This document shows positions 5,309-58,400 of a DNA stretch of 58,512 bases, in pieces. The notes beneath the pieces were generated by a model. The model ran no database searches. It was not told where the DNA came from and was given only the letters and a program-made list of their open reading frames with translations. Both the position numbers and the translations under genes were made by a program. The DNA is taken from positions 1-58,512 of the forward strand of contig NKIB01013392.1 of assembly GCA_002256025.1 (NCBI GenBank). Direction: 5' to 3'. Source of the stretch: Asterionella formosa. Taxonomy: Eukaryota. Each line of letters opens with the position of its first letter. The stretch's first letter is position 1.

Positions 5309-5309
5309 C

Positions 5310-9916: not shown

Positions 9917-10662
9917 GGATGGAGGAGATGGATATCTACGATATGATGGGTATGATGTGCTGACTGATACTCACTGTGTGGTCGTTGACGATCATGTCAT
10001 TGTTTTTTGATGAATCTTGCTTTCTCATCATGATGAGACATTTCGAACGAGGAAGCAACCAGCATAAGGAAAAGCTACATACATACCGGGTATGTAGAAA
10101 ATACTGAGGTAAGTACAATACCGGTATATCTACCGTACCAGTACATCAGATACTGTACAGTACAGTACTGAATTGTTAACAGGTTGTTCGATGTCGCACT
10201 TCTTCCCGCGTGCGCCTACTATACGTAGAACGAACTAATTATTATTTTTATGATCATCATTATTGCTAGTTTTCGCTATTGACCTTACTCTGTCAATCCT
10301 CACTGTTTCTTAGATTTAAAAGCTAAACTAAAACCTAATTTCAATCCCATTCATCACATTTTGAGAACCTGTTCTTCAAAATCCCTTTTCGTTGGCATAA
10401 ACCTCATTCTGATTGATCTGAAGCATCCATCGCTTTCTTTCTGCACTCAACTCTCTCCAGTGGTCACCACAATGTCCAACTGACACCCCTTGAGCAAAGG
10501 AGATGAGGGAAGGGTAAACCCCAACAAATAGTTCTACTAGGAGCTGTCATCAGGTTGACGAAAAATATACAGGATACAGCGCATTGTGGGATGTTTTGCA
10601 AATTATTATTACATGTAATCTTTGCTATTCCACCTTTGGGTTCCTCTTGTCAATAAATCTAT

Positions 10663-11557
10663 TTATGCCTGTATCTTTCCATAGGAATCAATAATGCTGT
10701 CAAAGATTGGTTTCATTTCTTGATAACAATGTTCTGGAGTTTGTGCAGTCAAAGTAATTAACACATTCCCAGCTCCTCCTGTTGCACCCAGTGCCATACT
10801 AAAAATGGCCCGGAAATGTGTTTCTGGCTGCTTGGTTGTCTTGACTGTGTAATCAAAGTAGTATGCATTATTCTTGCTTTTCGCACTGATCAAGGCACTC
10901 TCTGTATCTTCTCCTTGTATTTTCCCCCGTGGGAGGACAGTAGCTTGGGCGACCTGTGTATTAAATAGAATGGGTGTGTGAATTATATAAAATGTGATTT
11001 TGTAGTACAACACTTAACATTCGTTGTACACATACTTGGTCGACAGTCCCGAGTGAAGAGATGGAAGTAAAATCATCTCTAATGGGAGTAAAGGCGACAA
11101 AGAGCAATGTCTTTTCTTCGAGTTTGGTTGGATCCATAAAGAAAACAATCTTTCTCCTATCTGGCAAGGATTGTTCACTCTTTTCCCAAGTGGCAGGAAC
11201 ACTAATTTGAAAACCACAAGTCTCATCTTTGTATGTTTCGAACGTTTCTGCTGCAGAATAAGCGGCTGCTTCTTGGGTAACATGTGGAATGAACGTAGTC
11301 GTCAATACTGCAGCTCCTCCGGCAATCCAAGATCGTCGAGAAACGAGATTGTTGGAAGCGCTCATCATGGAAAGGCAATGAGTATGTGGCTGCTTCTGAT
11401 GATGATGAGTGTCATGGCAAGAGACTCGCTGGGCCATGGATGGAACGAGGAGGGTCGTCCTCCTGGCGGATGGAACAAAGGCAAAGGCCGATGCGGAAAC
11501 AATCAACATTCGCATGATCAGAACGAAAGAAAGGATGGTGGGGGTTTGTATCATCAT
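10663..11557 (-). CDS. PsbP-domain thylakoid lumen protein, 2 exons (intron 10954-11035)
   Basis: Signal peptide ending ASAFAF, twin-Arg SRRSWI plus hydrophobic stretch, F.ISVPATW and ISSLGTVDQVA...YYFDY PsbP-type motifs. The GT...CAG intron restores the frame. Confidence 0.85.
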
Positions 11558-13109
11558 TCTTGTCGCAGATTTTAAAGTGAAGAATACTGGGACTGTATGT
11601 ATATTAGTCAATAGTGTAAGAATATTAGATGATAATGCAACGAGGATGATGATGGCAACCGAACGTGAAAGATAGTTTATGTCGTTGGCTGTGTGTGATC
11701 ATGTCACTCAAAAGTCATCCTTTTATCATACACAGAAACAATGATCATATGATACCGGTAACAAATGCTGTATACCGTATCCTCGAATTATTCCAACCAA
11801 AAATAGTACCTGGTACCGTTATGCCAGCAGTAATAATACTGTTCTCTGCATTTGAACCCCTAAATCGAGGTAGGGTTAAAAGATTATATTGAGTCAGACT
11901 AATCAAACACATCATTTTCACGTCTAAAATAAACATGTATAACGCTCAACAGAGCTTTCACCAGTAGACTCCCTTTCCATATGCTTACATACAGTCTTTG
12001 GACAACGTCTGTTAAAGTGTTACCTTTTTAGATGGATTTATATCCTTAGACAAAGAAGACGTTAGACAAAGAAGACTATAGATAGAGACATTTGTTTCAC
12101 TTTAGTTTCTTCTATATTCTTACTATCATTCCAACCTTCCCTTCTTTGAACAAAACTCCACTCAATTAGAATATGATTTTAATGAATCTGTCAGCAACCC
12201 AAATTTATATTTTCACTCTCCACATGTGCTAATTTCATTTTTAAGGATTATGGAATCAACAACTCAATACCAGCTATATCTGTTTTCGTTTTAACAAATG
12301 GATGCAACTCAAAATGCATTTTGGGCCTCAAGACATCAAGAAACAGTGGCAAACTAAGATGAAAACTCAGTTTGAGGGATTGGAGAAAAAAACCCTGTTC
12401 TTTGATGTGTACTGGAAGGCATCAATGGTCTGCCTTTTTTGCGCCGCTATTGCTTTTTGTTGGCCATTCAAACAATGGATTTTGTTGTTGTAAATATTTA
12501 TAAGACCATTTGCAATTAGCTCTTATAGTTAAATAAGAATATTTTCAGCAATGCAATGACAATTTCAAATGTTAACGTCTTCATTCTTTTTGAAATGGAA
12601 CTCTGTCAATGTGTCGCCATTTTCTACTTAGTTTAAATATTCAAACAGGTACTTACATCATGGGAATACAAAGAAAAAAATTCCCTGTTCCACTTCAATT
12701 TTACAACCCTAGCATTTTTTCTCCAAATCAGGGTTGAGCCGGGACCGCAACCTTAGGCTGAAAATTACGGTGCCCGAAATACGAAGATCGAATATTGCGA
12801 ACCTATCATGGCCAAATCTTCGATCTTCGTATTTGGGAAATTTTGTGGCCACCTTATTTTACGGTCCCAAAGATTAAATAGTATGTCAATCCACACGTCA
12901 AATGACCGATCTCGAGAATTGAAATTTATTTCCTACATGAAAATTAGTAGTCTCGTCTGTAGGAATATTATTGTAATTAATTATAATGAAAATCGTCAAC
13001 ACTCAATGCTCCATCATCATTGTTGCTGCTGTTGTAAGGTGATCTGCCTTCACATCGGCCTATCTCCTTTCTCCTCTGTTCCCACCACCAGCATCTCCTT
13101 ATTATCAAA

Positions 13110-14432
13110 ATGTCGACTCAAAGGCCAACGGAATACTCAACTGAGGAGGAGCATTCCTTTTGCGACCGTATTCGATATTGGATAGGCAACCCCATCCAAG
13201 TGCACATGCTTCGAAGTGAGCAGATTGCCATTATATTTGCTGCTGGTTGTGAACTTCAACACAGGTTTGCATCTAGGGAGGAGAAGAAATTTCGAGATAT
13301 CATGGCTGAAGCGTATTTTCGAATTCTGGATGAAGACCTCCTTGAGGAGGATATGTGCAATACCAACATAAAAGTCAACTGCGATATACATGGGAGTCCG
13401 AGGATAAATCGAGCATGACTGGCGATACCTTATGGAGAAAGTGGCAGGAGATTAGAAACAAACTTTGCAACAGTATCATTTCTACTTCAAACATCGCTCG
13501 CCCAGGATTTGCACAAACTCCCAAGTGGACAAGGTTTGAAGGATGCATATTTCAAATTTGTCTGCAATATTTACAAGCAAAGATTCCAAAAGAAGAATCC
13601 AATGTGTCAAATCATGATTGATGGAGTAGATCTATCTGGTTAATCAACCAGCACACTCGAAATCATGGTTGTTCCAAGCCCACCCAATCATTGGGAATAC
13701 AGGGATCCAACTTTGTGCTATTTGCTTGCTTAAAGATTTTTCGGAAGAAATTACAAAAATGGTTCCAGATTTGAAAGACAGTGATGTTGTAAATATAAGT
13801 CGACGAAGATGCTGCTGGCAGATCGCGAAGAGAAGAGGCATAAAGAGCATGGAAGGAGCAGCAAACGAAAGCATCTTCATGATAATGAATATTCATCACA
13901 AAGCAAACAGAAAACCCCATTCATGATGGATATGTCGATGTTCAATTTTCGAGCAGCACAAACTCGAAAGGGAAAAGCTGATGAGGTTGTTGCTCATCTT
14001 GATCTATATGAGAGATTCAAGCACAGACTCCCTGAAGACAGATATCATGCAGCTGTTTTGAATTGTTTCGATAATCTACCTTCCCTACAAACTTATGATG
14101 TTGAGAGTACAAGTGTTTTGACTGACAAAAGTGTTGTCAGTGCATCAAGTGTCTTTGGAAATGAGCTCACTCCAACAAATACAACCCCAATTCCCTCTTT
14201 TTTTCGTAATGATGAGCAAGATAAAGATCCAGGCCCAGGACTTGTTGGAGGCATTTGCACTGACTGCCAAGTCCTGAACAGTGAACACCTTTGCATTGAT
14301 TTCAAAAAAAATGTATGCTCCATTTGCTGTGATGGTTTTCGAAATCTACAGAATATTTGGTGTTGTGGTGCTTGCTTTTCTATGCACAGCTCTGATGTTC
14401 AGGAACTAATTAGGCAACATAAATACTCATGA
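13110..14432 (+). pseudogene. Transposon accessory ORF (Myb/SANT-like segment plus C-terminal Cys-rich zinc-finger-like region), frameshifted
   Basis: Chained ORFs 13110-13418, 13355-13621, 13669-13926, 13809-14432; TGDTLWRKWQEIRNKL helix; CTDC..HLC...CSICC...CCGAC tail. Confidence 0.6.
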
Positions 14433-14452
14433 ATATATTTTACTAATATATA

Positions 14453-15210
14453 TTAAGCTATCTTGCCAACTTGCTTGTTACATATTTTACGAAATTCGTC
14501 ATAATGATCAACAAGTAGTTGAAATCTATTCCACCATTGACTTTGTTTATCCCGTAACATGCAATTCCTTGCAGTCACCTCGCACAGTATGCGCAATATG
14601 CTGTGTGTCAGAACTTTTACAGTCAAGGTAACCATCGCTTTCTAATAGCTTTCTAATAGAATTTTATGGAGCATACAGCATGATGTGAACGTATTTTCGA
14701 CATGCTCAGGTCGAGACAAGTTGTTCCAGTTCTTAAGAAATAACCATCGGCTTTTCAATATACCAAAAGTACATTCAATATCTTTTCGAACAGACTCCAC
14801 CATCATACCCCATGCCCTTTCTTTTCCATGTTCATTGCCATATTTAATTGGACAAATCAACACTGGCCATCGTAGGTACCCTCCATCACAAATGAAATAG
14901 AAGCTTTTACAAGTAATAGTAGACGTGTTAGGAACTTCTTTCACCAACATGACTCTTCCCTTGACATCAGAGGTTGTTTCTTTCTTTTTCGCTTAGCAGA
15001 TGTTGTTGGATGGCGATTTCTGTTGGACGGCAATTGCTGATTCCCTCTTTCAGATTGAACTTCCAAATGGAACTGAGAAACCAGCTCATTTCGCAATGCA
15101 GCTGGCAAGGCTGCTGGTAGTTGCTATGACAACCATTGTTGCTTCCATGGCTGCACACACTGTTGATAATGTGCCAGGAAGGTTGACGATAGCGTTGGAG
15201 GAGTTGTCAT
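14453..15210 (-). pseudogene. Harbinger/ISL2EU-type (DDE_Tnp_4/Plant_tran-like) transposase with internal deletion and stops
   Basis: FICDGGYLRW, ESVRKDIECTFGILKSRW, CCMLH motifs. The N-terminal frame MTTPP...KRKRKK...SCW*KKFL abuts the C-terminal part, so the central region is missing. Confidence 0.8.
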
Positions 15211-15773
15211 GTTACAAATTATTATTATCATAGTAAAAATATTAAAAGTAAGAATTATTGTATTAATAATATGTAATAATAATGACAATAATACTACAAT
15301 AGAAGTATCAAAGTATCGAATACTATATCATCAGTATATGTGATGACGATTATAAATTGTTTCCGCTATTCTGATTGGTGGAGACAATCTTCGTTTGTCC
15401 GAAGATTACCGGTAATTACTTCGGGAAACTAGGATTGTTCAAGAAAATACGAAGATTGGGTAAATATCGGGGATAACCCTCGAAATACCGGTATTCGGGC
15501 GAACGAAGATTCATCTTCGAATCGGGGGGGGATTTGCGAGTTATTTAGCCCGTAAGGGACGAATCTGGGCTACTCAATCTTCGTAATTCGGGCACTGTAA
15601 GACTGACCAGATTTCTTGGATTCATAACTGTCCATTTCGAAACTAACTGTCCGTCGAGTTGGCCGCATACTATCAGCTACGGTGCAAGAGAGAGAGCGGG
15701 CGATGCTTTACTCAGCCAAGACTCCGCCACATTTTTCTTATTCAGCTGACAGCACACAAAAAATCAAGAACGA

Positions 15774-15847
15774 ATCGAACAAGCATTAGTTGCCGCAACA
15801 AGAAAAATGATCGAACAAGCATTAGCTGCGGCAACAAGAAAAACGAT
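15774..15847 (+). repeat. 36-bp tandem duplication at the PAP2 5' end
   Basis: ATCGAACAAGCATTAG(T/C)TGC(C/G)GCAACAAGAAAAA(T/C)G occurs twice. Confidence 0.85.
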
Positions 15848-16637: not shown

Positions 16638-16995
16638 AACCACAAGTTCGGACTATATTAATGTGCAGAAAACAGTCTGCCCATCAGCCATGAATGATGT
16701 ACCACAAGTAAAGATGAGTACTCACCTGGTACCGGTATACCATCGATTACAAAAAGAAATCAAGATATGATAAGAATCTATACCGGTCGAATGTACGGTA
16801 TACTGCTGGCATTTAAAATATATATTATTTGTGTAATATACTGTGCCTTTTATGTTATCGCAGGTACACGGTGCGTATATCAGCCACACCACATCATCAG
16901 ACAGGAACAGTATACAAAAGATACTGCATCCGCCATCAACTTCTAATACAAGCATGCTCAAGTGCAAACGAAATTCACAAAATAACACCTTGGTG

Positions 16996-18015: not shown

Positions 18016-18692
18016 TTCATGGAGAAATGGTTTAGAGCAGAGAGAAAGAAATGAAAGTATATACTAGCTAGCTATTATAGACAGAGCGCAACAGAGACGA
18101 CGAAGCAAATAGTATCAAGACGAACCATTTGCTTTTTTCGTCGCATCATCACAACCAAGGAATGCATTACCGGTACCTGGTAGTAGTACATTTTAGTACA
18201 TACCGGTATGTACTCAGTATTACAGTACCGGTACGGTAGCATGCATGCTGCTGTCCCCCAATGACATCATCATCCAACATGGATCGGAAGAATCTTTATT
18301 TAATTAGCAAAACAATACGACAGTACATACAGACACATCATGGGTGTCTACATACTGTACCTGGTACCTGGTACCAGGTAGTTGATTTACTGGTAGTGCG
18401 AAGGACCGTCTGTTCGCAGTACAGACGAGTACATAGGACGGCCAACCAAAATAAATCTTCGAATAATCAGCATGGCTGATGGCTGTTCAGGATTTTATGA
18501 TTGTCAGATTGCATACCGGTACCGGTGCGTACCGGTATATAATCCTTTATTTTTGTGGCGCTCCATCATGCTGTTGTAACCACAGTTAGTTATATACATA
18601 CCCCTTGCTTTGATTGTAACATACACACACAGTCACACTTACCGGTACTCCAGAGACGATTAATAGTATTCGCTAGACAAATTGGTCGCATC

Positions 18693-23734: not shown

Positions 23735-25923
23735 GATGAGTGTGGCGAGGAACACTAATCGTGCTGGTGCGCAGTGTTAACAAATGGAAAGCGTTTTGTC
23801 AAACGGTGATGAAATTATGTTCCAAGCTGTAAAGAAACAAAGTTAGCAGTTCTGATACGGTATTCTTCAAGATGCCCGGTATGATATAATATAACGCCCG
23901 CTATATCATAGTTACTGCTCCATCTGAAGTTCAGGTAACTGGTATGGTACATAGTACCGGAACCTGGTACCTGGTACCGTACCGGTAATACGGCTTTGGT
24001 AACAACAGCCAACAGTACATAGGTCGCTGATACTGTAGGATATACTGTGGGCTATATTCCCTAGACTATCTTACCGGTACACCGTTATCCATATTTTGAG
24101 AAAGATAGTACCTGGTAACAGGTACCTGATACCTGGTACTCCAATAACAGTTGCATCGATAATTCAAATTTATGCGGGGCCATTTTGACTCCTACGATTT
24201 TCTCCTGCAGAATTGCCCTATTGTGCGACTTGCTCTAAGCTACGGAATCATGTGTATATATGATTTATGAAAAGATTGAAATTGGCAACTACATTTCAAA
24301 AAAGTTTTTGGGCTTTTTTGATTTTCACTTATAGCTATCTCGAGCAAAATGCAGATGCATGAGGACCCATTTTTCTTCGAACCATCTACCGGTATTCTCA
24401 ACATACGTACAAAGTACGATATAACAGTAGAACAACGGTAACTTGCATTCAATTATGGAATGCGCAACCCAGAAAGTGGTGATGATGAAAAGCAAGAACG
24501 ATGGTATGCTCGTTTTGAGGATTGTAACCGTTAAACATCCGGTGGTATGGTCTATGTAGGTGCAACAACCGTAGAAAGTATACTGAACGACAATCAATCT
24601 ATTCAATGTTATAATTATGATAGTGGCTTGTTGTATTGGGTTTCCCGCAAATATTTGACTGGCCGGCCGATGTGAAACAGCATTTGGCGAAATGTACATC
24701 TATGCAATGAATATGCGTATGTTAAATTGGTTTCGAATCATTTATTTACAAGCTAATAATTTAATTACAGAAACCGAGTACCGGTATGCATGTTTACGTA
24801 TATATAACTCATAAATAACGCATTATTTCGAGTAAGCCGACCCTCAAGTTAGAAAATTGGTATATCCGTTTCGTCATTTGCTTGTTGGAACTGTCCCTTG
24901 CCTCAAACCAGCTTACCGGTACCACCAGCTTGATGTGCGTACACACACTTTTGACTTGTTTTCATTGGTATGTTGTTCTTGTATTCACTGTTGAACTTGT
25001 CCGCATCTTTGTTACCATCAATTCGCTCGTTGGAACTGTCCGTTGCCTCAAACCTACTTAGCGTGCGTGTACTTACACTATAGACTTGTGTACATTACAG
25101 CAGTGACTTAGCTAGTAAAGTGTGTGTTATAATGTCATACTCCGTAGTATGATGCAGAATACAGTTCCCTCATCTTGATAAGATGATAATGTGATATCAC
25201 GATAGGGTTACATCGATGCATATATCACCAAAATATGATACTTAATATTGAATGATGTTTATCACATAGCTATGATACATTGATCATGGAACTATGATGA
25301 TTTATTAAAATGTTTATGATAAAATTTTAGTCAAAATATGATCTTGTTAAAGTAAAACAATGATCTGTTTGCTCAAGTTTGCTTCTCAAGTTTGCTTGTG
25401 TCTACCCACCACCCTCAAAGACATTAGTGGTGGCTTTACTTCGGAATCATCGACTCTAGAAGCCTCATCAGTATGAATAATTCTAATGATCCTCTTCAGG
25501 ATTGATTAATCCTCCAAACCTCTGGATCTCATGGTATCATTGACCAAGAGTGCATACAACAGTTCTTATGCAGCAGTCACAAACTACTTTACCACAATAA
25601 AAAGTAATTGGATGACAATCCTTGATTCTCATCTAGCACCAGTTTCAACACGATTTGTCATTTTCTGGCCTACTCTTAAAAATTTTCCATGACAACAATT
25701 GTTAGAAAAAATTTGAACAAAACTCAAAACACTCATTAATTTTTTCTCCCTTTGCCTCATGGATACATCATATTATACAGACATGTTGCGAACTTTCATT
25801 AATTTGTATCAATTGTGTTCAAAACAAGGCACACTCCCATTGGTAACTCATACTGAAATTCAAAATTGTAAATAATAAAATAAATACTATACAAATTCCC
25901 CTCCATCCATCATTCATGTACTA

Positions 25924-27425
25924 TCAACTATAAAATGCAATTCCTTTAATAAGCGGCGTCAGGGTAGTGGATGGGGAAGAGTTTTTTGGTTGCTCTTTCC
26001 AGTACCCTTCTGTCGCATTTTCGTCTTCCACTGTTGCTGTTCTTGGCAGTGAATCACTCGAGCTTGGCCAAATTTTCAAGTTGGCACTAGCAGGCATGGG
26101 ATGGTCACTTGCTAAATTTGACGGCCATTCACACATGACTGTTGTATCACTTTCAAAGTTCCGAGGAGATCCAGGGGGAGTCAAGAGTGGGACTGGTAGT
26201 GCGTCGCTCTCCTCACAGCAGCCCACCAAGTCGTCGTCCAATTCTTCACTCAATTGGCGATCGTTTTCTTCGTCTTGTGTCGATGGTGATACAGCTCCTT
26301 CGTTATTCCATGGTTGTTGCTCTTCTGACAACCATGCCGATGGCCCCAAACTCAAGTCAGGCATCCATAAAGGCAATTCTGTCAGGTGCGTTTGACTGAA
26401 ATCATGGGTAGATACAAATCTCATACGTTTCGGAGATTCCGCCGTCAAAAGTCTGGATTCTCGTTCATCTTCCAACATTGTATGCCTGGACAAGCACCGT
26501 TTTACTTTGGGTTCTGAATTGGCTGCGCTTTCTACAAAGGAAAATTCCGTCAAATTTTGGTCCTCGTTACTCATGATGGGCATATCTTCCCATGAGTTAG
26601 TTCCATCATCATAGCTTGCCAATGCATGTTCCAAATCCAACAATTCTGGTGCTTCATCCACTTGCAATGACGTGTGGAAAGATTCAACGTCATCTGGATA
26701 GTGGTCGTCGTTCACATCATTGTCGTCATCATCGCTTTCGGACGAGGATTCTTCTTCCTCAGAGTCATCATCACAACTTGCTGGTGCCAATGGCAATCCT
26801 CGTGCAACATATTCCGATGAGCTATAATAACAATGATACCAATAACAACAATGTGTGCAACAAAACAAACAACGCCATGTTAGTTCTTGAGCCATGTGTG
26901 AATTACTCGAGTCATGCTTATATATACATGCACAAAACAAGTATCGTACCTGTTGGATGCATCGTCGTCATTGTCTTCATCAAGATCTTCACCCTCGGCA
27001 ATCGATTCAATAATTCGACCACGAAGGGCTTGAGGACTAACAATTTCGACGGATTGCTGAATCTGCCGGGTGACAAAGTTGACCACTTTCATATCAAATC
27101 TATATAAATATATTACGAAAATGCAATGTTAGAGATGCCACTCAAACAAATCAAGGTAACGGTATTGATATAGTTCGTACCTATTTGGTTCATTGGATTC
27201 CGATGTAACAGAGTCTTCCTCTTCCTCATCATCACTGCTACTGTCATAATCAGAATCCGGAGGAATACCACCACTGCAAGTCAACTTGACTTCTTCATCT
27301 TCCGTTTCATCGGCAGTGTCCAATGAAATGGCTGTCTGTTTTGTCGTTTTGACAGGCTGAGCGGTTGCTTCTTCTCCTTCGTCGTCACGTAGGTGCTTGT
27401 GAGGTGGCTGAAAGGCGGATACCAT
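25924..27425 (-). CDS. Acidic, largely disordered protein of unknown function, 3 exons (introns 27100-27180 and 26822-26949)
   Basis: Both GT-AG introns join the three ORFs in frame; contains VPLLTPPGSP and CEWPSNL motifs. Confidence 0.75.
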
Positions 27426-29454
27426 GGCGTTGTAGCTGTTGAGATGCTATTCTTGTTCTTGTCGGTGTCTGTACTGGCAGAGCCTTGTTGGAAATACTCC
27501 TGTTTTGTAGAATTAAAAAAGCAAAGCAGTGGGGAAGGCGGGGGTTAGCAACTTCAAGTTCAATATAGAGGGGGAGGAATTAAAATAAGGTACACAATGA
27601 TGGGCGTTTGATCGTCAAGCACATTGCTTTCTTGTTGTGGGTATCATAAGACATATGATTATACATGTTACGATGATGACTCCAACCATCGAGGATGAAA
27701 GTGATCGATTCATTCTTTAAACGCAACGATCGATTCGTGACGGGAACAAATCATATATCAAATCATTGATGCCAAAACGTCAAAGAAGATCGGAGTCGAA
27801 GTGGTCGTGGTATTCCTGCCGGTACGCACGCGAACCTTCTCATGATGGTGCTTCAATGCATCGACACCATCTTGACAACAAACTACGAACTCCTCACCGG
27901 CAACAAGCAGTTACATGAACTCGGTTACCGGTATATTCAGTACACACGACTGTACATACCAGAATATAATGCCCGTGAATGAGAAGGCGAGCGTGTATGA
28001 ATGTATGAAAGGTACGATCTAGTACGACGTGCGCCATCTGCCTCAATAACCCATAGTACCAAAGAAGCCCAATTTTTGAGGAACCACAAAATTGTACAGT
28101 AGAGCACATCAGCGAAGGGTAGACCACCTTGGCAGGTATATAGAACTAGCGGTACTAGTACGATATTCTACCTGATGGTACCTGGTACCAGGTACCCCAT
28201 AGTACAGCAGTAGCAGTGCCAGCGGTACATGACTGATACCAGGTCCACTTGGTATCATCCCATCATCCTTCTCACGATGGCTGAGGGACAACCAAACCAG
28301 CACAACAACGATCAAAACACAATGCATGAAACGAAAGTAAACGAATCGATACAACCAATGTAGCGCTCCATCGAATTGGACGGAGAGCCACGTCGATTGG
28401 GACATTCAATAGCAAGACGAACGATACTGGAATCGGCGAGACTGGACAAACTCCAGTTGACATGGTTTCCATTCACAAAAACAAACACAGATGTGGAAGC
28501 CAGCGTTTCCATGTGCAGCTGAGTAAGCTCGGTTGAATTCCAGCGAAACGAAGAAGACATTGGGGCTGAGAGGTTGCGGCGTTCCCCAAGATTCTCACAA
28601 GAACAACAAAGTGCCAAAGAAACGGAACGAATGAAAGAATGAACGAACGAGAAGCGTTCCTTTGAGGAAAGCAGCCGACATTGGTATTTCGGTACGTACC
28701 TGAATGGTGCTAAGGTAGACTTGGTGTTAATGAGCGGGTTACAAGTCAAGAGCTTCATTCAAAAATCGATTGTCTTGCTTTGTTCTGTTTTCTGAATTTT
28801 GTAGGCTGAGTTCTTTGATGAGCAGAGGAGTGCTTTCCTGTTTCGGAAGCAAAACGTCGTTGATATTTGTACGGGACGTACCGTACCGAACATACCCGTA
28901 TGATTTTTGAACTCAGCTGGTACCTGGTACCTGGTAGCTTTTCTCGCTCTACATAGGCACTTGTCATACTCCTGCCATGCTTTGTGGCCTGGTGACCTGG
29001 TACCAGGTACAAGAACGAGCTACGACATGTACCAGAACTTTCGCTCAAGGGCGGTCGTGTTTGCATGGTTCTGTGTGTATGTAGAGTTGTTGATTCACAA
29101 CAGCCACAAACGGACGTCATGTAGAATCTAACAACGTTGAATCTCGTTCTATAAGTAGGATGGTCTCGTCCATCGCCGTTTGTGAACAACTTACCTGGTG
29201 TGATGGGCCGAGGAACGTACCTGGTACCAGCTCTACATAGCACCGGTACCTGGTACTCAACTTGGTAACATAATAAACACAGGTATCAGGACATAACTTG
29301 TTTGTAGGAGTATCTATCGGCCAGTTTTCTACATAAACTACAACAAGTAAGATGAAATGTGTCGTGCACCTTCCCGACCAGTTTGCTCAGAGGGAAAAGA
29401 GAGTCTTTAAACAACAAACGCATGCTGTATGTGTAGACCAAATTACTAGGACGA

Positions 29455-29668
29455 GCAAATTGTGGTCATTTTGCTTGAAGAAACAATTTAATACCGGATA
29501 AAGATAGCTAAAGTTTTAGATTGAGCACAATTACCGCAACATGCAACAAGTTATACCGGTAGAAGTAATGTATGGGTCACCCTAGCAAGTTGCGGTCATT
29601 TTGCTTAAACTAACATTATAATCAAGGATAAAGATAGCTAAATCTTTAGTTTCAGCAAAATTACCGCA
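29455..29668. mobile_element. Two adjacent copies of an ~88-bp MITE-like element
   Basis: 29455-29544 and 29585-29668 share GCAA(G/A)TTG(C/T)GGTCATTTTGCTT...GATAAAGATAGCTAAA...TTACCGCA; they are the reverse complement of the copy at 49486-49573. Confidence 0.8.
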
Positions 29669-29989
29669 TACAGTACCAGGTAACGGTATACTTTTATACA
29701 AGATAGGATCTACAGTAGCATGAGGATACCAGTATCCATGTCGTACGGTAAACGAGGTAGCTGGTACCTACCGGTACCTCATCAGAGATGGTGACTGCAG
29801 ATTACGTACGGCTCTTGACTGATGAGAGCAACGCCACCGCATCGACCAAAAACCAAAGCCAATTCCAGTTGAAAATATCAACACACGTCATTTGGTCGTC
29901 GAGAAAATATCTATCAACAATCGAAAAATGGCTGGTTCCGTTTGTTGATTTTTCTGCATGTTTCTTGTTTGCTATGTTAGATCATAAAC

Positions 29990-37109: not shown

Positions 37110-37205
<96 letters not shown>
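37110..37205 (+). repeat. (CTA)32 microsatellite
   Basis: Uninterrupted 96-bp trinucleotide run. Confidence 0.98.
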
Positions 37206-38865: not shown

Positions 38866-39946
38866 GTTTGGAACTGTTTCAGTTGTAGCTGTAGTTGCTG
38901 TCTTGATGTAACTGTTGAATGTAGACGACAGTGAACAGTGGCGGATGAAGACTGTGATTACCAGAACCTGTATTGATAGCTGGAATGGATTAATTATGAG
39001 AAATATATGAACATGCAACGCATCTTTAGCTTTGCAGAAAAGTGATGATGAACAAATAGTCAAGAAAGAAAATCCTCAAAATTTCCTACTCCTATCGTAG
39101 TATGTACTGGCATAACATTTATATACCGAGTACCGGTAATACTGTACAGTAACTCCTTTATAATGTGTTGTGGTTCTTGCATCTGATGATGATGACGGAC
39201 GCCAACAATACGAACCTTGTCAGCATTCATCAGCGCCGAACTTGTCATGTACGTACCTGCTTTGCATGTACAGCACGTATCTATGGAATGAACAAAGCAG
39301 TTTGCTTCACTAGAAATAAATGTGCAACACCAGCGCACCGTTTGGTTCACACACTCCTCTCGCTACATACAGGATATTACCGGTATGCATGTCTTGGAAT
39401 ATACCGGTACCGTACCGAGGTAGTCGTGAGCGAGGGACTTTTGACTCCTACATACGTATTAGGTAGTTGGCGATGCGGTATGTTATTATGATGACGGTAT
39501 GTATATAGGAGCAAGTGAGCGACGTGGCACTTTTGTCCTCGTCATCGCAACCTCCGTCGTCCGTCGTTTGCTTCTGCTTTGGTGACAACAACCACCACTT
39601 GATTTACTTGTCTCTACATCAGATGTGCACAAACGCAACATAATAACCATACAGACAGACAAACTTGAGAAATGGAAATAACGACCACCGCCGCCATCAT
39701 GTGATTAATCATATACCCGTATACTTAGTTAGCTTCATATTTGTATATAAATATTGGAATGTATTTTTATGATATATTCCGGTATGGAGTATGGTATATA
39801 CTATAGAGGGTAAATGATAAAGACTGATTCAAACAACAAGCAGGAGAGCAAAGGAAATTTACACCATCTCAACCACATCAAAACAAACGAAATCTTAGTC
39901 CTGACAATAAAAAAATCGAAACTTTTGTCCATCCTTTACTATCATC

Positions 39947-44284: not shown

Positions 44285-44600
44285 TGTGCTTCAAACCTGA
44301 TTCAGGTTGCATGTACTTTCCCATCACAGTAGGAGGGATTTACGGAATGGATCGTGGCAAATGAAGCGAAGCGAAGGGGCAGATTCTCATTTCACTCCGG
44401 TTTTTCTGACACACTAATTATACTAAGGATGCTTAGCTACTACGTACTACCGGTACCTGGTTACCAGGTTTGGTTTGGCAGGACCACTGAAATTTCCTCT
44501 CCAGTGCTTCAAACCTGATTCAGGTTGTTGGTATTCTGACTATTTGTACCTTCCCTCAGTATTTTTACGGGATAGATTGTGGCAAATGTAGCGAATGGGG
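44285..44600. repeat. Degenerate direct repeat (period ~220 bp) containing the palindrome AACCTGA-T-TCAGGTT
   Basis: GTGCTTCAAACCTGATTCAGGTTG and TTTACGG...GAT(C/T)GTGGCAAATG(A/T)AGCGAA each occur twice. Confidence 0.7.
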
Positions 44601-49485: not shown

Positions 49486-49573
49486 GCAAGTTGCGGAAAT
49501 TTGCTGAACTAAAGATTTAGCTATCTTTATCTCAGATTGAATTGTTGATTTAAGCCAAATGACCGCAACTTGC
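49486..49573. mobile_element. 88-bp MITE-like element about 95 bp upstream of the V-ATPase start
   Basis: Perfect 11-bp TIR GCAAGTTGCGG/CCGCAACTTGC, flanked by GCA on both sides; homologous copies at 29455-29668. Confidence 0.8.
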
Positions 49574-49598
49574 GCAGATTCATGTTTGCATTCTACAT

Positions 49599-49636
49599 TA
49601 CCAGGTACCCGGTACCTGGTACCTGGTACCTGGTAC
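49599..49636. repeat. (TACCNGG)5 heptamer tandem
   Basis: TACCAGG TACCCGG TACCTGG TACCTGG TACCTGG TAC. Confidence 0.9.
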
Positions 49637-50703
49637 ATATACTAACTATAGACCATACAGCATGTTATAACTGGCGCTACATACCTACCAGTGTGTGCTT
49701 TTACGTCGTAATTACTTCATACACACTACCTTGTACCTGCTCCCTCTGAAATTAGATCTGTCGTATTGTGTTAGGGTTACATTTTGTTTGAGAGTGCCGG
49801 TACGGTACGACCCGCTATAGCTACGGTACATGATCATACGCACACCGGTACCGGTACATCGATATGATACTTCTATGTAAAATGAGGTACTAACCAGTGC
49901 GTGTGTTTTTGGAGCGAACAAATTGATTCACCGGCATATACCGGTATACCGGTTTATGTATTGTGAATACATCCATACATCTGCTGGTGGTAAATATTTC
50001 CGGCAGCTACCAGTACCACGCCACCTCGTGTAAAAAGTCGGAATATCATATCATACCATACCTTCTGTAGAAAAACGCAACGCCAACACGAGCCCGCAAG
50101 TCCCTAAGTAATCATCCTACAAATATTTCGAAAGTCCCACCTTATATAGGCAGACCATAGTGCCTACTTTAGGCGTAGTAAACATATGAATAAGCATGTG
50201 ATGCACTTTTTAAGACCTAACAAAAAGCCTAAATCACGGAATCAGCAATGCACTAAATAGGGAAACTCGTACAGCTTTTGCGATAACAACGTCAAGTTAT
50301 TGATGAGCATCCCATCATGTATGAAAAGGCAGAGTTTAAGATAGAGACATTGACGAAGAAGGGGGTGGAAAGTTCTCCTACAATTGTATCTATCAAGCAT
50401 GGTGAAACAGACTAAGGGTCTTGGACAGTTTTCAAATTGTTCATCACATACTTTAAAAAACATAAAAAAATATATGCATTAAAGGAACTGGATCATAAAA
50501 ATACCTTCTTGGATAGTTGAGGTAAAACCTGCTGCTGGGCTGCTAGCAAACCAGCCTAGTCACACAAGATTTGTAAACACATTTTCATGAATGTGATACA
50601 CCAAGATGTCACATCAAACATAATGATAGCACACTGTCCCTGAATTTAATATCCATTCTTACAAAGGAAACTAATCTTTTCCCGTTCAGCTGTGTCCCAA
50701 ACA

Positions 50704-50912
50704 GCCAGGGGAATGGCTTAACTGGTGGTTAGCCCACTTTATGAGGGGTTGGATTCGATTCCTGCATTCTCCACCTGTCATTCTCCCTAGGGTTCCGGGG
50801 GGTGAAGCTGATGAAGAGACAGGCCCCATTGCACTTTATCCATTCAAGTGGTGGGCATGAGTGCGATTATTGAATAGCTTTAATGTACTATAAAATTTAA
50901 TTGACATTTTTG
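50704..50912 (+). mobile_element. tRNA-derived SINE, copy 1
   Basis: Degenerate box A (TGGCTTAACTGG) and box B (GATTCGATTCC), shared body and AT-rich tail. 20-bp TSD GTTCAGCTGTG(T/C)CCCAAACA at 50684-50703 and 50913-50932. Confidence 0.82.
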
Positions 50913-51263
50913 GTTCAGCTGTGCCCCAAACATTGAATTTAATCGAGCCATGATTGGTATGAAAGATCAAATGATAGATTTTAAGTCCCAAAGTTGCAAG
51001 TAAAATCTTTCGAATTCCCCCATAAAATGATGCTTGACAAATGTTATCTTCACCACTCCTCCGTCTCCTATGAGGATAATCTTGAACTTGGGTCTGTGGA
51101 AGAAGTATATGGAGGAGGAAGCAGGTTACAAGAAGGGGACTGGTGGGTGCAATAGGTAGTCCTGTTTTCTTTCTAGTTTAATTGCAACAAGATACAAAGT
51201 GTTTGATACCACGACCTTACCATGCTAATATTTGTGTCTATGCAGGAAGTGCTGATCGTAGTT

Positions 51264-51821
51264 CTAGAAACAAACACTTTTGGGAGTACTGGTGGTTGCT
51301 ACATAACGGAAATGTTTGTGTTGTAGCTCTCCATATTGACGCAACCTAAATGAACCAGGTCAAGCATGGAAACCTCCGCACTGATCAAGCATTGGTTAGG
51401 AGTGGTGTGAATGAAATATGAGCACCGGTAGCTGGCATACATACCATCTACTGAATCTACGTGGCGGGGGGTGGTTTAGTGGTTAGCACACCTTCTGCGG
51501 TGGTAGGTTCGATTCCTGTCTTTTTCATGTAGTCCCCAGGGTCCCGGGGGTTGCGGCTGAAGAAAAGACAGGTCCGGTTGTACCATACAAATGATTAAAA
51601 GTGGTACTAATTGTGTCCATTTATTTGGGCCTAAGTGCGATTATTGGATATTTTAAAATGATACGACTATAAATCTACATGCCCTCTACAGCTCGTTGTT
51701 CATTCACATTCCCCGCCAGTGTGAGCTGCCATGCTTGACCTGGTTCATTTAGGTCGCGTTCATATGGAGAGCTACAAAACATACATTCCAGTTGTGTAGC
51801 ATCAAAAAGTGTTGTTTCTAG
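51264..51821. repeat. ~100-bp inverted repeat (arms 51264-51369 and 51729-51821) enclosing SINE copy 2
   Basis: GTAGCTCTCCATAT...ACCTAAATGAACCAGGTCAAGCATGG is the reverse complement of CCATGCTTGACCTGGTTCATTTAGGT...ATATGGAGAGCTAC. Confidence 0.85.
51464..51671 (+). mobile_element. tRNA-derived SINE, copy 2
   Basis: Box A TGGTTTAGTGG (51472-51482), box B GGTTCGATTCC (51506-51516). TSD AATCTAC(G/A)TG at 51454-51463 and 51672-51681. Confidence 0.85.
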
Positions 51822-52758
51822 CACATTAATCACCTTACTAAAAACCAAAAATGAAAGCATTTTCTGTGATAGGACTAAGCAGCACTCCAAATTATCAGTT
51901 TCTTGGAATAATCACCACAATGAAGACACTGTCTTCGTGGACAATGATAGGAAAGGATGACCAGTCATGATATTTGACACCTATTGCTTGACCTATGTCA
52001 GGGATATTAATAGAGAGTCTAAAGTTTACATATTAAACAATAGTTATACGTCCTCCTTCGAAGCACTATCAGCACTTTCTACTATATTAGGTATGGATGC
52101 ATCAGTGTGGTCCGCCCGAGTTAGAAATCATTCTTGCGCGTACTTTTTGTCCTGACCGTTTTTTAGATGGTGTCGGTTTAGGACACACAAGGGTACATTG
52201 TGAAGTGTCTAACTTGATGCTCTAGCTACAAGGCATATTTAAAATCATTTTCGTAGTCATTGACATCCCCTACCCATGTACCTTTGCTGATCCTACTTCA
52301 ACTCACCCTGCATGCTCCTCTCTTGCCTCTGGATTTCATCAGGTTTGCTGCTCTCACCTTTTTGGGCCTGCTGTCCTACATATTATTCCTGCTGGCAAAG
52401 ATCGTCTGCCAGACTTCTTATTTTAAATTAACGGAAATGGCCATACAAATGCCTGATGTCGCTACCTTCTGCATCGCCCAATACACTTCTTTGGCTCTCT
52501 TATTATGTAGCATTCAGCTGGCAACCCCTATAATTGATTCGTCTAATTCCCGGATTCTCGTATTTTAGTTTTCCGAAATTGACTCTGCAGTTTTCAAATT
52601 GCTTTCTATTTCATGACGACTTGCAGGAGGCCTCTGTGCTCTCTCTGTGTCTCCTATAATGCTATTCACATGACACCGCCATCATTGGCTCCTTGCCCTT
52701 GCTCAACATATCTACAGCTTTTTCCCTAGTCTGCAGCTCCTAAGAGTCCAATAATGGA

Positions 52759-52998
52759 GGGGAGTGGCTTAGTGGTTAGTAGCACACCCACTGTGGTGGC
52801 GGGTTTGATTCCTGCATTCTCCACCTGTCTTTTTCATGTAGTCCCTACGGTTCCAGGGGGTGCGGCTGGCTGACGAAAAGACAGGTCCCATTGTTTTGTA
52901 TGGACAAGTAAAACCGGTACTTATTGTGTCCATCTATTTTGTGGGCCCAAGTGCAATTATTGGATAGCTTTAATGTACTATAAATTTTAACTGGCATA
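52759..52998 (+). mobile_element. tRNA-derived SINE, copy 3
   Basis: Box A TGGCTTAGTGG, box B GGTTTGATTCC. 18-bp TSD TAAGAGTCC(A/C)A(T/C)AATGGA at 52741-52758 and 52999-53016. Confidence 0.85.
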
Positions 52999-53521
52999 TA
53001 AGAGTCCCACAATGGACTCTCCCTGACTCATCATTCCCATGTGGCCAATATCATGGACTATATTGTTGCTGCAACAAAAGAAACTCCATTGGATTTGAGT
53101 TTCAATGTAAGTGTACATTAAGCATTATTTGCCTAGTTACAAATTTAAGTTTGTGTGAAATAAGTCTGTTGAGTTCTCTTTACCATAATCATATCGAGTT
53201 CTGATTATGCAAGTTTAACAGTAACCACATAAATCTTGATGTATACAGGATCTCTTTATGAATAACAATATTTGCTTGATGCGACACATAGTTGGAATGA
53301 ACTTGTAACATAGTATAGGGACCGCCATTAAAAAAAGGATAAAATGTTGTTGGATTATCTGGTGGCAACACCAGTATTTATTTCATCACCAATATAGAGT
53401 GATAACAAAAATTAGCATCATGGCAAAGGCGTTCATCAAACTTAATCTTTCCTTGGCGGTGTAACAATTGTAAATCAGGGATCAAAGCAGGCAGGAATAA
53501 TCAATATTGTATAGTATCCAA

Positions 53522-53673
53522 TTGATATCACCCAAATCATTCCAGGATTAGCAAGACAAGAACCATTAGCAGCATCTTTATTAACCAATCAAGGAGATGT
53601 ACTTGATATCACTCAAATCATTCCAAGATCAGCAAGACAATCATAAGCAGCATATTCATTAACCAATCAAGGA
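53522..53673. repeat. ~80-bp tandem duplication
   Basis: TTGATATCAC(C/T)CAAATCATTCCA...AGCAAGACAA...AGCAGCAT...ATTAACCAATCAAGGA occurs twice. Confidence 0.8.
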
Positions 53674-53951
53674 AGCAATGAGATGCACTTAAAAGGATCT
53701 GAACTGTATAGCAGCACCATATTTTTTCTTACAGTAGTTAGATTTGAGCTGGTTGTTGTCAGAATCTTCCAATGGCATTCTCCATGTTTATTGTCCCTTG
53801 TCTTGGAGCATGTATGATTGGACATCCAGAACACCTGTCATTGTTGCATTGCCAAGCGAAATCATAAAAACTCCCATATAAAGAGTGCTTCATTCAATTT
53901 TCGATTTACACCCAACTTCCTTTTGATGTCGTCAGTATTGATGACTTCAAT

Positions 53952-54160
53952 CATTTTAAATTCATTAAATTAAATTTATAATAGAATTTTAAAGCTATCC
54001 AATAATTGTTCTTGTGCTAAACAACAAGTGGACACAATTTGTACCACTGTATTTGTCTTGTACGGGTTCCTTTCCATCAGCCACATGAAGATGCCAGGTG
54101 GAGAATCTGGGAATCAAACCTGCCACCTCAGAAGGTGTGCTTACCACTAAGTCATTCACC
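53952..54160 (-). mobile_element. tRNA-derived SINE, copy 4 (reverse strand, internally deleted or variant body)
   Basis: Reverse complement reads TGACTTAGTGGTAAGCACACCTTCTGAGGTGGCAGGTTTGATTCC...AATTATTGGATAGCTTTAA. Perfect 13-bp TSD TGATGACTTCAAT at 53939-53951 and 54161-54173. Confidence 0.85.
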
Positions 54161-54568
54161 TGATGACTTCAATTGTTTTATCATTGGATGCCTTGAGGAT
54201 ATCACCTGGTACTGTGGCATGATGGAATTGGGCCTCCACACCGTCGAGGGTCCATTGACTATGGCATGGCAGCTCCCAAGTCAGCCTCCACTCCATTGCA
54301 AACAAATTTCATTAATTCCATTGTTACATGGGTAAAACTAGTCTATCATCATAGTTTGTCGTAAAATCACAGCAGCAGTTGTACAAACGAATTGAAATCA
54401 TCGTGAGCGATTGGGATATCAACACATGATTATTTGTTACTTTATTTCCAGAATGATATAATTCCTCGCTCAAAGTAGATTCGTTCACTTGTTCCTTAAT
54501 ATATTCGATTAAAATATTCGTGTGTTCTTCGAAAAGTACATCATCATGGCCGCAAAAGTATTGTAAAG

Positions 54569-55459
54569 TTAGTTGGCACCAAAAAGGTCCATAAGGGGGA
54601 CAGATCCAGGGATGGATTCAAACGCAAACATGGAAGCCATGGCAATCATACCAGCCCGTCCGTTCTTCAACTCCACATCCTTGTAATGCGCAAGCTTTTC
54701 AGCAGATAGCTTCTTTGTGAATCCAAGAGGCTTCGTTGTGACGAAAGACACGACAATGCATATAAACGGGCACAATGGAGTCAGGTCAAATCAGGGTCGG
54801 GACAGAACGATGTATACAAGAAATTAGTAATTCTACTCACATCAAATCCCAAATTTCCTGCTTCCTTCGTGCTCATTCCTCTCCAGTCGTCACCACTGTG
54901 TCCAACCGACTCTCCTTCAGCGAGGGAGATGAAAAGAAGGACAGCGCCAAAAAGTGCGGGTTGTTCGGCCTGCACAACACCAAGAGCCGTGGTCCAGTCA
55001 CTCGCTTCAGGCATGCCAGGAATGTGCATGCCAAGTCCCATGCCGCCCTATTAACAAGAATGAAGCAAAAGAGAGTGAGCTTAACTAATACCTGCACTAT
55101 GCCATAAAAGGGGGAAGGGAGACTTCCATACATGACAGGAATAGTATCAGAGTTCAAACGGTATTCTGAATCTCTCTATACGCAAATCACAGGACTCTAC
55201 TCACAACATGGGTGGCCCAGATTCCAGTCCAGGCAAGCATCGACATGCGTCCATGCTTAATCTCCGATTCATTCAAGTACTGGTAGTCCGGGAACATGCC
55301 AGGGAAAGTATCGAAGGCTTCCCCTTGTCCAAGCTTTCCAAGGCTCATTGGATCCCAACTGGCAGAAAGAGCCGATTGGCGAGAGACGGAAGCGGCAGGG
55401 ACAAATGCCGATGCGCCGGCAGCAAGAGTCGCAGCGAGAGCAAGAGATAGCTTGGCCAT
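54569..55459 (-). CDS. Light-harvesting fucoxanthin-chlorophyll a/c binding protein (LHC; subfamily uncertain, possibly Lhcr-like), introns 55048-55204 and 54731-54840
   Basis: Signal peptide plus ASAFVP; ESEIKHGRMSMLA (helix 1); GNLGFDPLG across the splice junction; VELKNGRAGMIA (helix 3). Confidence 0.95.
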
Positions 55460-58400
55460 GGTGAGCGTCGACGTTGAGTGCAGAGTAGGGTAAGTCTAGT
55501 CAAGCGGAGGAGGAGGAGCGAGTGTATAGCGAGCTCTCTTTTCCTGATGTGTTGCAGAAATCATAAGTACTGAAAGATATGCAAGAATTTCTTCAATGCA
55601 TAAAGGACTCACCCGACCCCACAATTAATGCTACGTCATGCTCCCGTCTTGGTGACGTATTGATCAAAAGCCACATACCTACGATATCATACGTACTATA
55701 AATCCAACGTGTGGGCTGCTGGCTGCATAGCGATACCTAAATTAACGGTACCAGTACCTGGTACCAGGGTACCTTGTACGGTACAAGTACCCTGGCACCA
55801 TGCTGATCATGCCTGATTGATACTACGAACGTACCCGAAAACTAATCAACTCTCAGCGCAACCTTTTTTGGCCATACATGTTGTCGTGGTTTTATACTGC
55901 ACTGGTAGTTTAGTAGTCCGCTTACCGGCAATTTGCGGTAATTTTGCTACCGGTATACGAACAGTGTGATCCATATCTTAGTGCTACACACGTCATCATG
56001 CCAGCAATAGTGATTCCAATTCCAAATTGATTCATGTGAATCTCTTATGATTTTTCATTTCATTTAATAAACCACCCCACCACCTGGTTGTTTGGAATTA
56101 AATGTAACTTTAATCTGATTTAGCCTACAACAATTTTGAGACCTATCTTTTTACTTATTCTGCCAGTTGGTACCATGATAGCTAGGGTTTGCTTAATGTT
56201 TGACCGCTTTGCTTGAAGTATCGATTTCCCTTAATGTGTGATGTCATCATTTCAACCCAAATGCCAGCATCACAGCCAAATACCTACATAACACTGTAGT
56301 TAATAATACAGCATACCGGCGGTAAACAACAAGGTGAAGTAGTAAGGAATATATTGCCCATGAAACATGCGGCCGATATATCATACACCTTTTGATGGAT
56401 GCATGTACAGGGTACCGGAGGTAGCCCACATAGGCACTAGAATGTAATTATTTAGGGGGGGGGGGTGAACTAGTCATTCTGAACGGCTGGAGAGCGAATT
56501 CTGCATAATGTTGTCCCAGCCTTGACCATGACAAAGATAACAAATAACTTAACGAAAAATCAGAACGACGCTTTGCTATTTTCTACGTACAATCACGACA
56601 TCATCGACAATGCAATCAAAACAATTATGCTGATTACACTGATATTGACAACGAAAATTGAAGCACATTTTTTCATGTAAATCAGCGATGCATGTTTTTA
56701 AAATGACATGTTACGAGAAGCTTTGACACTTTTACAGTAGTTACACAACAAATAATACTACAACTACTACGTCGATAACATGAATAATTGGAGCAACAGA
56801 TGCTAAATAAGTTATTTATCTGCTGATAATTGATTGATTACGAATTGGCAATTTATATATTGGTAAAAGCTGACAAACGTGAAGTATGCTGTCAAAACTA
56901 TTAGTGATACCCTATATTAATGTTTGGCAGCCCCTTAATGCAGCAGCATACATGTGAGTGCATACAGGAGTGCAGAACACCATTATGAAATAATGCTACA
57001 CCTTGCGATCCACTTTTTTTACCAACACATTGTTGACATACAGGTAGACCAATGCAGGTAAATCTCTTTCCTTCTGTAGCGACACATACAGCCATGTACA
57101 TATGAATTCAGGACTGTGCACGCTTGTCTACAAAGTTTAAGCAAAATATTGCTTCAAATTGTCTTGCTTAAAGTTGAGTCCATCATTTGCTTAACACTAA
57201 ATAGTCTTTCAGTACTTTAACCCAAAATAAAACGATTTGGAAAGCAAAATGGCTGTTGATCCAGACTACAATAGTAGTAAGACACTATAAAGACGTTAGT
57301 TGTTCTTACACAGGAATGGGAGGTTGGGATTGGAGGGTAAAAGCCAGAAAGGCTATTTACAAGGGTTGAAAGGAGTAGAGTGAGTAGAGTGAAATTCATT
57401 TACTGCTGGTGCAAAATTCTGTGGGAGACAGTGGCAATGCTATTTCGTGCTGGCTGTACTCCTGCAAACACAGCAATAGACCGAATTTATGAGCCATATA
57501 GCCAAGACAAAATAGTGACATACAAACTCATGCATCTGATACAAGATTGTTGCACTGGCGGGCATTCACTACTGTGTGTTTAGATAATTTCATTTAAATA
57601 TTAAAATTGCAATCTCTTTAGTATATACATTGCTTGTTTACTAGTACCTCAATTGTTATTAACTATTTAATCTACTAGTAGTAGAATGGTTTGCATGTAA
57701 TATGCATATTACAAGAAAACTGGCTGGGGAGGTACGACAACAAGGGATTTCATTCCATGACAAAACTATTAGAGGTGATGGTATTACCCACTCTATACAA
57801 GGCAGTATATACAACGAGATTTGTCGAAGGTGCTAGTTACCAGAGCACTACATAGGTACGGCTAGATATGATAGCCAGCCTATATAAGTAGTATCATACA
57901 TCTCGAGTTTTGTCGAAAGTGCTACCGGTAGTCTACTTAACTATAGAACTGGTACCATTGCACCAAATAGTTACGACTCCATGTGTACCAGGTACCACTA
58001 GACTACCAAGTATCCAGTCGATACACGTACATATCGCGAGCTTTGTCGAAGGTGCTTTAGTAAAGTACCAGTGCAGTATAAAACCACGACAACATGTATG
58101 GCCAAAAAAGGTTGCGCTGATTTGAGAGTTGATTTATTTTCGGGTACGTTCGTAGCAGAATACTCCTACTTACGAGGTATTAACGGTACTTGCGTCCTGC
58201 CTTTGTGTGAACTCCTTGAGCAATTCCCGCTCCAGCTATCGTCTTGCCATTTGGGTACTTCTAAGTAATTTTTAGGCTCCAAGTAATTTCTTAAGTAATT
58301 TTTATTTAAGGGCAATATGGGGCACATCGAATTTTTCGGCAATAAAATTGCCGATTTTAGCATGACAACCAGAATATCGGTAATATGCATAGAGATGGTA

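Follow-up and report, generated by a model that had tools for sequence, protein, structure and literature searches.

The window analyzed here is the whole of contig NKIB01013392.1 of the diatom Asterionella formosa (58,512 nucleotides), which is contig C13392 of the 68.4-Mb assembly GCA_002256025.1 (named G000 below). It carries twelve genes, among them those for a dynamin, a PsbP-like protein, PAP2, IF3, CEBPZ, an MFS/Atg22-like protein, an acidic protein, a desaturase, CSE1, subunit a of the V-ATPase and an LHC protein, as well as repeated DNA. Between these genes lie clusters of two short palindromic words, TACCGGTA (the CCGG word) and TACCWGGTA (the CCWGG word, W being A or T), which are the subject of this work. 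Gene bounds were drawn from open reading frames (ORFs) and RNA joints, and gene names were checked by Pfam, in which the IF3 match is below the cut-off and no family was found for the acidic protein or for the ORF at 43.3-43.9 kb. Every cluster listed by an earlier reading of the bare sequence (the original prediction) was found in its place. That reading had written the words as TACC(N)GGTA; the clusters are palindromic as it said, but the spacer is W or absent rather than N, TACC(C/G)GGTA occurring only twice in the window.

Both words are far more abundant than expected. In the window, 28 copies of TACCGGTA have been counted against 0.3-1.5 expected from Markov models of order 1 to 3, and 23 of TACCWGGTA against 0.2-0.6. 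This is an enrichment of 20-100 times. GGTACC occurs 42 times (5.9-18.9 expected under the same models). GTAC, also named by the original prediction, is only weakly enriched on its own (271 vs 247 under the order-2 model). Genome-wide, TACCGGTA is present 28,528 times compared with 1,718 for its reversed control, and TACCWGGTA 26,886 times compared with 902, which gives about 55,000 words in all and bears out the view that the phenomenon extends to the whole genome. Triple arrays number 2,186, and none exists in the control. Among the 7-mers of 642 kb, the centre is A or T in 195 cases and C or G in 14. The sequencing runs that match the contig are of freshwater and algal origin.

The placement of the words relative to genes was studied in the window and in a sample of 1.44 Mb from 49 contigs (the window and stretches of 48 further long contigs). 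These contigs were picked from lists of array, pogo and terminal inverted repeat (TIR) hits, and the sample is therefore not random. The gene models are based on ORFs (269 built, 35 weak ones dropped, 234 kept) and can miss short first exons. RNA runs exist as contigs that show neither transcription start sites (TSSs) nor strand, and one of them, run X3, covers 10-30 kb of the window only piecewise. In the window, 37 of the 51 words have a neighbour within 100 bp, while 2,000 draws of random non-genic TA sites gave a mean of 12.6 and a maximum of 27. A single word falls inside a gene span, in an intron of the V-ATPase gene. At least one word is found within 600 bp upstream of 11 of the 12 genes, PAP2 having none upstream, and the words near genes give 42 counts upstream vs 3 downstream (those in divergent gaps being counted for both genes). 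The same holds in the sample, where the 152 genes with both flanks free have 230 words in the 500 bp on their 5′ side compared with 56 on the 3′ side (p 3e-12). The 5′ density is about four times the 3′ density overall, with a peak of 4.0-4.6 words per kb at 200-500 bp upstream against 0.4-1.3 per kb downstream. Divergent gaps of 0.5-1 kb contain 5.4 words per kb and convergent gaps 0.65. The gene-flanking, mostly upstream position originally proposed is thus confirmed, with densities higher 5′ of genes than in other DNA. The words had also been described as sparse in coding exons and transposon bodies. This is right for coding sequence (15 words in 343 kb, 0.04 per kb), but repeat bodies far from genes do carry 0.3-0.4 words per kb, and two words are inserted in transposon copies of the window. 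No periodicity of 150-200 bp, the scale of the nucleosome, was found among word distances, which speaks against the nucleosome-organising element that had been suggested.

Comparison of homologous copies has shown that the words arose by the insertion of six or seven bases at TA (TA to TA-CCGG-TA or TA-CCWGG-TA). An all-against-all alignment of the 1.44 Mb yielded 3,986 distinct indels within repeats. Indels of six bases number 165, and 27 of these turn TA into TACCGGTA; none of them is a tandem duplication, and three represent one shared event. A homologue is available for 120 TACCGGTA sites: all homologues are bare in 30, a majority is bare in one, and nine show a bare minority or a tie; 36 are common to all copies and 44 are otherwise changed. 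At several sites there are 10-26 bare copies (e.g., 26, 15, and 14) and no filled one, and therefore the direction of the change is insertion. Two of these insertions into transposon or repeat copies are in the window itself: at 15486, where another copy of the Plant_tran/DDE_Tnp_4 transposon has a bare TA, and at 24387, where six of seven homologous copies lack the six bases and none is filled. For TACCWGGTA, 42 sites have a homologue, and a bare copy is found in four of them, mostly at G-TA-C.

Insertions are also seen in single-copy DNA. In the divergent gap between IF3 and CEBPZ, a lake contig (run X6) differs from the window by nine substitutions and four intergenic indels, of 6 nt at 18529, 11 nt at 18225 (two stacked units), 7 nt at 18357 (one unit), and 3 nt at 18180, the window having the longer allele each time. 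Three of these indels take out whole CCGG/CGG/CCWGG units, and the fourth is a TAG beside a word; the site at 18529 is a bare TA in run X2 as well. The RNA contigs of the two genes, from two runs, stop at 18072-18097 and start again at 18672-18699, a weak hint that the words lie between both transcripts. Every word has the form of TA, four or five bases, and TA, and so resembles the TA duplication made at their target by Tc1/mariner/pogo-type elements. In this sense it was wrong to state that the words lack a target-site duplication, while the statement that they are not a transposon in themselves is correct. Other classes of de novo TA insertion were recorded in the sample, TA-C/G-TA (57) and TA-GC-TA (28); the density of TAGCTA is 0.3-0.8 per kb on both sides of genes, with no 5′ bias.

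Two types of resident elements have ends that match the inserted bases. The first is a pogo family with a transposase of the PF03184 (DDE_1) type (E 2e-23), whose TIRs begin with CCG. It has 95 exact ends, TA precedes 31 of the 35 distinct ones, and empty sites with a single TA indicate that it duplicates TA. A second CCG-ended family is also present in the genome. The other type is a CCA-ended family with 460 exact ends (TA before 46 of 52) and full copies of 0.7-3.7 kb, its TIRs and TA duplication being confirmed by full copies and empty sites. These copy numbers are counts of exact patterns, and hence lower bounds. One CCA-family member (G000:C14068:1-3540, locus L265) contains an intact frame of 779 residues between CCAG-type TIRs. 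Its product has relatives of 43-65% identity in freshwater and marine metagenomes and shows conserved, pogo-like D..D-37-D motifs. In one marine contig (L293), which encodes a transposase 61% identical, a CCAG end preceded by TA is accompanied by the same array 30-90 bp outside the end. The inserted bases equal the terminal bases of these elements, CC+GG for those with CCG after TA, and CCA+GG or CC+TGG for those with CCA after TA; the CCA/TGG ends account for the A/T centre and for the scarcity of C/G centres. A search of G000 with PF13358 (the Tc1-type DDE_3) gave no match, which does not by itself show that this type is absent. At one place (L279, G000:C2608:1108-1137) two CCA elements stand end to end with one TA in common. 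The inverted arms at 55823-55915 and 58058-58155 of the window were considered as CCAG-ended TIRs and rejected, since their flanks are common to the copies and the arms are then internal parts of a repeat.

The target choice of the CCA family is of special relevance to the arrays. The TA next to CCA ends is preceded by G in 41 of 46 cases and by GG in 35 of 46, compared with GG at 11% of the TAs of 5′ regions (p 8e-25). Seven of the eight distinct full copies are in GG-TA, four of them in exact GGTACC, and 16 of 52 ends abut a word. CCWGG words show the same preference, their TA following a G in 81% (71% when only isolated words are counted), and 254 of 515 have a TA in common with another word. 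The CCG ends behave differently: GG is found before TA in only one of 31, and none abuts a word. Likewise, CCGG words have mixed flanks and are stacked in 63 of 629 cases (10%). Each word is thus paired with its presumed source family, because the flanks and stacking of CCWGG and CCGG words mirror those of CCA and CCG ends, respectively. Moreover, one repeat TA has been found in three states: bare in five contigs, occupied by a CCA element in C251 and by TACCTGGTA in C417. Within arrays, the base at W is not the same in 56 of 111 adjacent 7-mers, and 6- and 7-mers are mixed in 37 of 158 neighbours. A scar left in GGTACC would give GGTACCWGGTACC, two targets from one, which would account for the period-7 arrays and their mixed centres.

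The CCWGG words are in turn the target of a family of miniature inverted-repeat transposable elements (MITEs) of 86-96 bp, with the TIR CAAGTTGCGG, which inserts in them with a 3-bp CWG duplication. Besides the window copy at 49487-49572, partial copies lie near 29543-29668 and 55929, and others were found in G000:C204, C118, C377, and locus L007; the transposase of the family was not found. Within 1 kb of genes, 37 of its ends are upstream and 6 downstream. This MITE was also weighed as the maker of CCWGG, but it duplicates CWG inside pre-existing words and is therefore a user of them.

On this evidence, read from sequence, the words are very probably the excision footprints of the two resident cut-and-paste families, and the presumed scar of the CCA family would rebuild its own GG-TA target and stack. 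In the CCG family, two bases of each end would be left at excision (CC+GG), producing TA-CC-GG-TA. In the CCA family, CCA and TGG would be joined with one base shared or lost, resulting in CCAGG or CCTGG at random. Staggered cuts of two to three bases are the rule in the Tc1/mariner/pogo superfamily. One GGTACC would then become GGTA-CCWGG-TACC, with two GGTACC sites, in a feed-forward loop. Landing would be biased to accessible 5′ DNA: since TAGCTA, a frequent TA insertion, has no 5′ bias, landing is a likelier source than tolerance for the bias of the CC words. Whole elements would be purged or move on, while the scars of 6-7 bp would be tolerated and then decay by point mutation, some serving as secondary targets of the CWG-duplicating MITE. 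Among the possibilities first listed was a self-propagating palindromic microrepeat in open chromatin. This comes near to the footprint reading, with the difference that propagation would proceed via transposon target choice instead of slippage.

Several observations weigh against this interpretation. No excision event was observed. TACCATGGTA, the simplest fill-in product of CCA and TGG, is nearly absent (one in 642 kb), and the CCAGGG/CCCTGG class (36) is not accounted for by the footprint model. The words exceed the few hundred element copies by more than 100 per surviving element, which needs long or intense turnover. No clear three-state site was found for the CCG family, so that the link of TACCGGTA to it consists of the end sequence and the flank pattern. 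The de novo CCWGG cases are few (the four sites mentioned above), and direct support for 5′-biased landing is thin, with six CCA ends upstream and none downstream within 1 kb of genes. The array accompanies the transposase at only one of 17 metagenome loci (L293), most of these loci being short and devoid of element ends. Finally, the likeness of the CCA transposase to pogo and mariner enzymes is weak. It has no match in Pfam, and its profile aligned with that of pogo (hhalign) at E 0.002 with a probability of 14%. Its fold matches to Metnase (E 0.009), Mos1 and Sleeping Beauty are weak as well, no match reaching E 0.001 with a low-confidence model (mean predicted local distance difference test score, pLDDT, 59). 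The comparison of the family profile with PDB sequences gave chance hits only.

Other explanations are less favoured. One of them builds on the cis code considered in the original prediction: however the words first arose, selection would maintain them at promoters, as sites bound by a dimeric factor or as signals that position nucleosomes. The strong 5′ bias with its peak at 200-500 bp upstream agrees with this, as does the unbiased TAGCTA, which shows that general tolerance of small insertions is no explanation. There is also a precedent in the available parts of the papers cited: TACATGTA stands upstream of 12,070 genes of Phytophthora (PMC3520976) and is bound by PsMyb37 (PMC11134190). On the other hand, populations differ in the units that they carry in one and the same promoter, words are also inserted in transposon bodies, and neither a fixed distance nor a nucleosomal period has been found. 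The decay of the words points in the same direction. One-mismatch relics are in excess at every word position, most of all at the CpG centre (349 vs 66 expected). For each perfect TACCGGTA there are 0.67 relics in 5′ regions, compared with 0.65 in the remaining unique DNA and 0.54 in repeats; for TACCAGGTA the corresponding values are 0.73, 0.83, and 0.88. Decay in 5′ regions is therefore no lower for TACCGGTA and slightly lower for TACCAGGTA, which indicates little preservation at promoters, with the reservation that differences in word age could mask selection. Decay and polymorphism thus argue against a conserved code as the cause of the words, which we regard as improbable, although some words may be used as binding sites.

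An even less probable alternative is a home-grown palindromic microsatellite, extended by replication slippage or hairpin-guided repair, which transposons merely follow. Period-7 arrays are common, as the 2,186 triple arrays attest, and the difference of 7 bases at 18357 allows a reading as a single unit in tandem, so slippage may extend existing arrays. As the origin of the words, however, it has already been largely refuted: first units appear at a bare TA with no flank template (all 27 TACCGGTA insertions are non-tandem), neighbours differ at W in half of the cases and are mixed in length, and the inserted bases equal the ends of resident elements. Least credible of all is a drive like that proposed for HIP1, in which a DNA methyltransferase and methyl-directed repair turn near-matches into the palindrome: the words do contain CCGG, CCWGG, and GTAC, for which they had been suspected to be DNA-modification targets, and HIP1 has been linked to orphan methyltransferases (PMC4390886, in its available part), but the words arise by insertion of 6-7 bases and not by substitution, CCGG and CCWGG lacking TA flanks are absent from the top enriched words, and the CpG centre is the position that decays fastest.

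Footprints of this kind have been reported in other systems, as far as the available parts of the papers tell. The Tc1 footprint is given as taCATGta (PMC3520976). ZB leaves 0-3 bp (PMC7913693), and Passer, a pogo element, 0-4 bp with a TSS-proximal insertion bias (PMC9976928); both favour DNA near TSSs or open chromatin (PMC9976928, PMC7913693). The words of A. formosa resemble such IS630-Tc1-mariner/pogo footprints in consisting of TA, the terminal bases of an element, and TA, and in the presence of resident TA-duplicating elements with matching ends. They differ in number, with tens of thousands of copies in one genome instead of rare events, in the 5-base CCWGG scar, and in the GG-TA-CC target bias by which the scar recreates two targets and stacks. 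Another related case is TACATGTA (motif-1/AM-20) of Phytophthora, an abundant, TA-flanked 8-bp palindrome 5′ of thousands of genes in another stramenopile, with the form of a Tc1 footprint. It is conserved across species (PMC3520976) and bound by a MYB protein, PsMyb37 (PMC11134190), and the available text shows that a footprint origin was dismissed by its authors owing to abundance and conservation (PMC3520976). In A. formosa, in contrast, the insertion origin can be shown from sequence.

Promoter microsatellites and unstable tandem repeats likewise form polymorphic short arrays in 5′ DNA. The arrays described here are composed of heterogeneous units and start at a bare TA, which slippage cannot do. 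HIP1, a short palindrome of cyanobacteria, is common in coding DNA, whereas the words are insertions and almost absent from it. The available parts of the HIP1 literature describe it as hyper-abundant, tied to methyltransferases, and of unclear function (PMC4390886, PMC5861425). A literature search, in which subscription journals were thinly covered, found no description of diatom words like these or of stacked promoter footprints, and the matches listed for TACCGGTA were unrelated. What is new here is the scale, the concentration in promoters and the self-renewing target, the kind of footprint itself being known.

These results have several implications. Footprints are usually seen as rare by-products, and here about 55,000 of them appear to make up those long words of a genome that show the highest enrichment. 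Such scar words mimic a promoter code and are a trap for motif discovery. Abundance would no longer serve as an argument against a footprint origin, and it is one of the two used for TACATGTA in the available text (PMC3520976). The combination of bare-TA homologues and matching element ends offers a simple test that can be applied to Phytophthora and to other genomes. Through a scar that rebuilds its target, heterogeneous arrays could form in promoters with no need for slippage. The scars would also be a fossil map of transposon landings and would often make promoters differ between populations. A bolder proposal, by analogy with the MYB protein that reads TACATGTA in Phytophthora, is that feed-forward scars build up promoter arrays at nearly the pace of point mutation and that the host has begun to read some words as binding sites. 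The four indels beside nine substitutions in the IF3/CEBPZ gap are the basis for the rate, and the proposal as a whole is tentative and rather unlikely. If the host does read scars, promoter motifs of stramenopiles would have in footprints a general source that has been overlooked.

The clusters of the window are collected in Table 1.

Table 1. Word clusters and associated features in the window.
Positions	Feature	Basis
10084..10126	TACCGGGTA and TACCGGTA, 5′ of dynamin at a distance of about 170-200 bp	dynamin by Pfam
11753..11817	TACCGGTA and TACCTGGTACC 5′ of the PsbP-like gene, a little past RNA contig ends (11628, 11724)	Pfam
15407..15493	two TACCGGTA in the right end of the Plant_tran/DDE_Tnp_4 transposon (about 12768-15598)	Pfam, alignments
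16725..16800	small cluster between the convergent PAP2 and IF3 genes, which departs from the 5′ rule	
18168..18647	10 words between the divergent IF3 and CEBPZ genes, not covered by the RNA contigs of either gene	
23963..24138	stack of CCWGG and CCGG words 5′ of the MFS/Atg22-like gene	Pfam
24387..24394	TACCGGTA inserted in a repeat copy	alignment of homologous copies
27926..29776	word clusters upstream of the gene for the acidic protein	
39131..39411	three copies of TACCGGTA between the divergent desaturase and CSE1 genes	genes by Pfam
44448..44470	stack TACCGGTACCTGGTTACCAGG upstream of an ORF with no assigned family	
49487..49572	86-bp MITE (TIR CAAGTTGCGG)	
49599..49946	longest array, five units with mixed A/C/T centres, and TACCGGTA words upstream of V-ATPase subunit a	Pfam
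55747..55775	CCAG, CCTGG and CCAGGG units stacked upstream of the LHC gene	
57923..57996	words within repeated DNA near the contig end	

RNA contigs of two studies, ending at 28728, include the acidic-protein clusters as far as 28200, and the rest lie beyond. In the stretch 27181-28728, one such contig runs on from the exons of the gene, possibly as a 5′ leader of 1.3 kb that contains word clusters. The transposon at 12768-15598 has TIRs that read CRGTGCCCGAA after TA, encodes a broken Plant_tran/DDE_Tnp_4 (Harbinger-like) nuclease and is apparently flanked by TA. Elsewhere in the window, degenerate frames resembling a long terminal repeat retrotransposon are found at 3600-6640, gag- and reverse transcriptase-like by eye, one frame having been scanned with no Pfam match. 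A (CTA)n run of about 95 bases at 37110-37205 can be read on the + strand as an open poly-Leu frame. Finally, related repeats with tRNA-like boxes (GTGGTTAG..GTTCGATTCC) lie in both orientations at 50720-54150, perhaps as a family of short interspersed nuclear elements.

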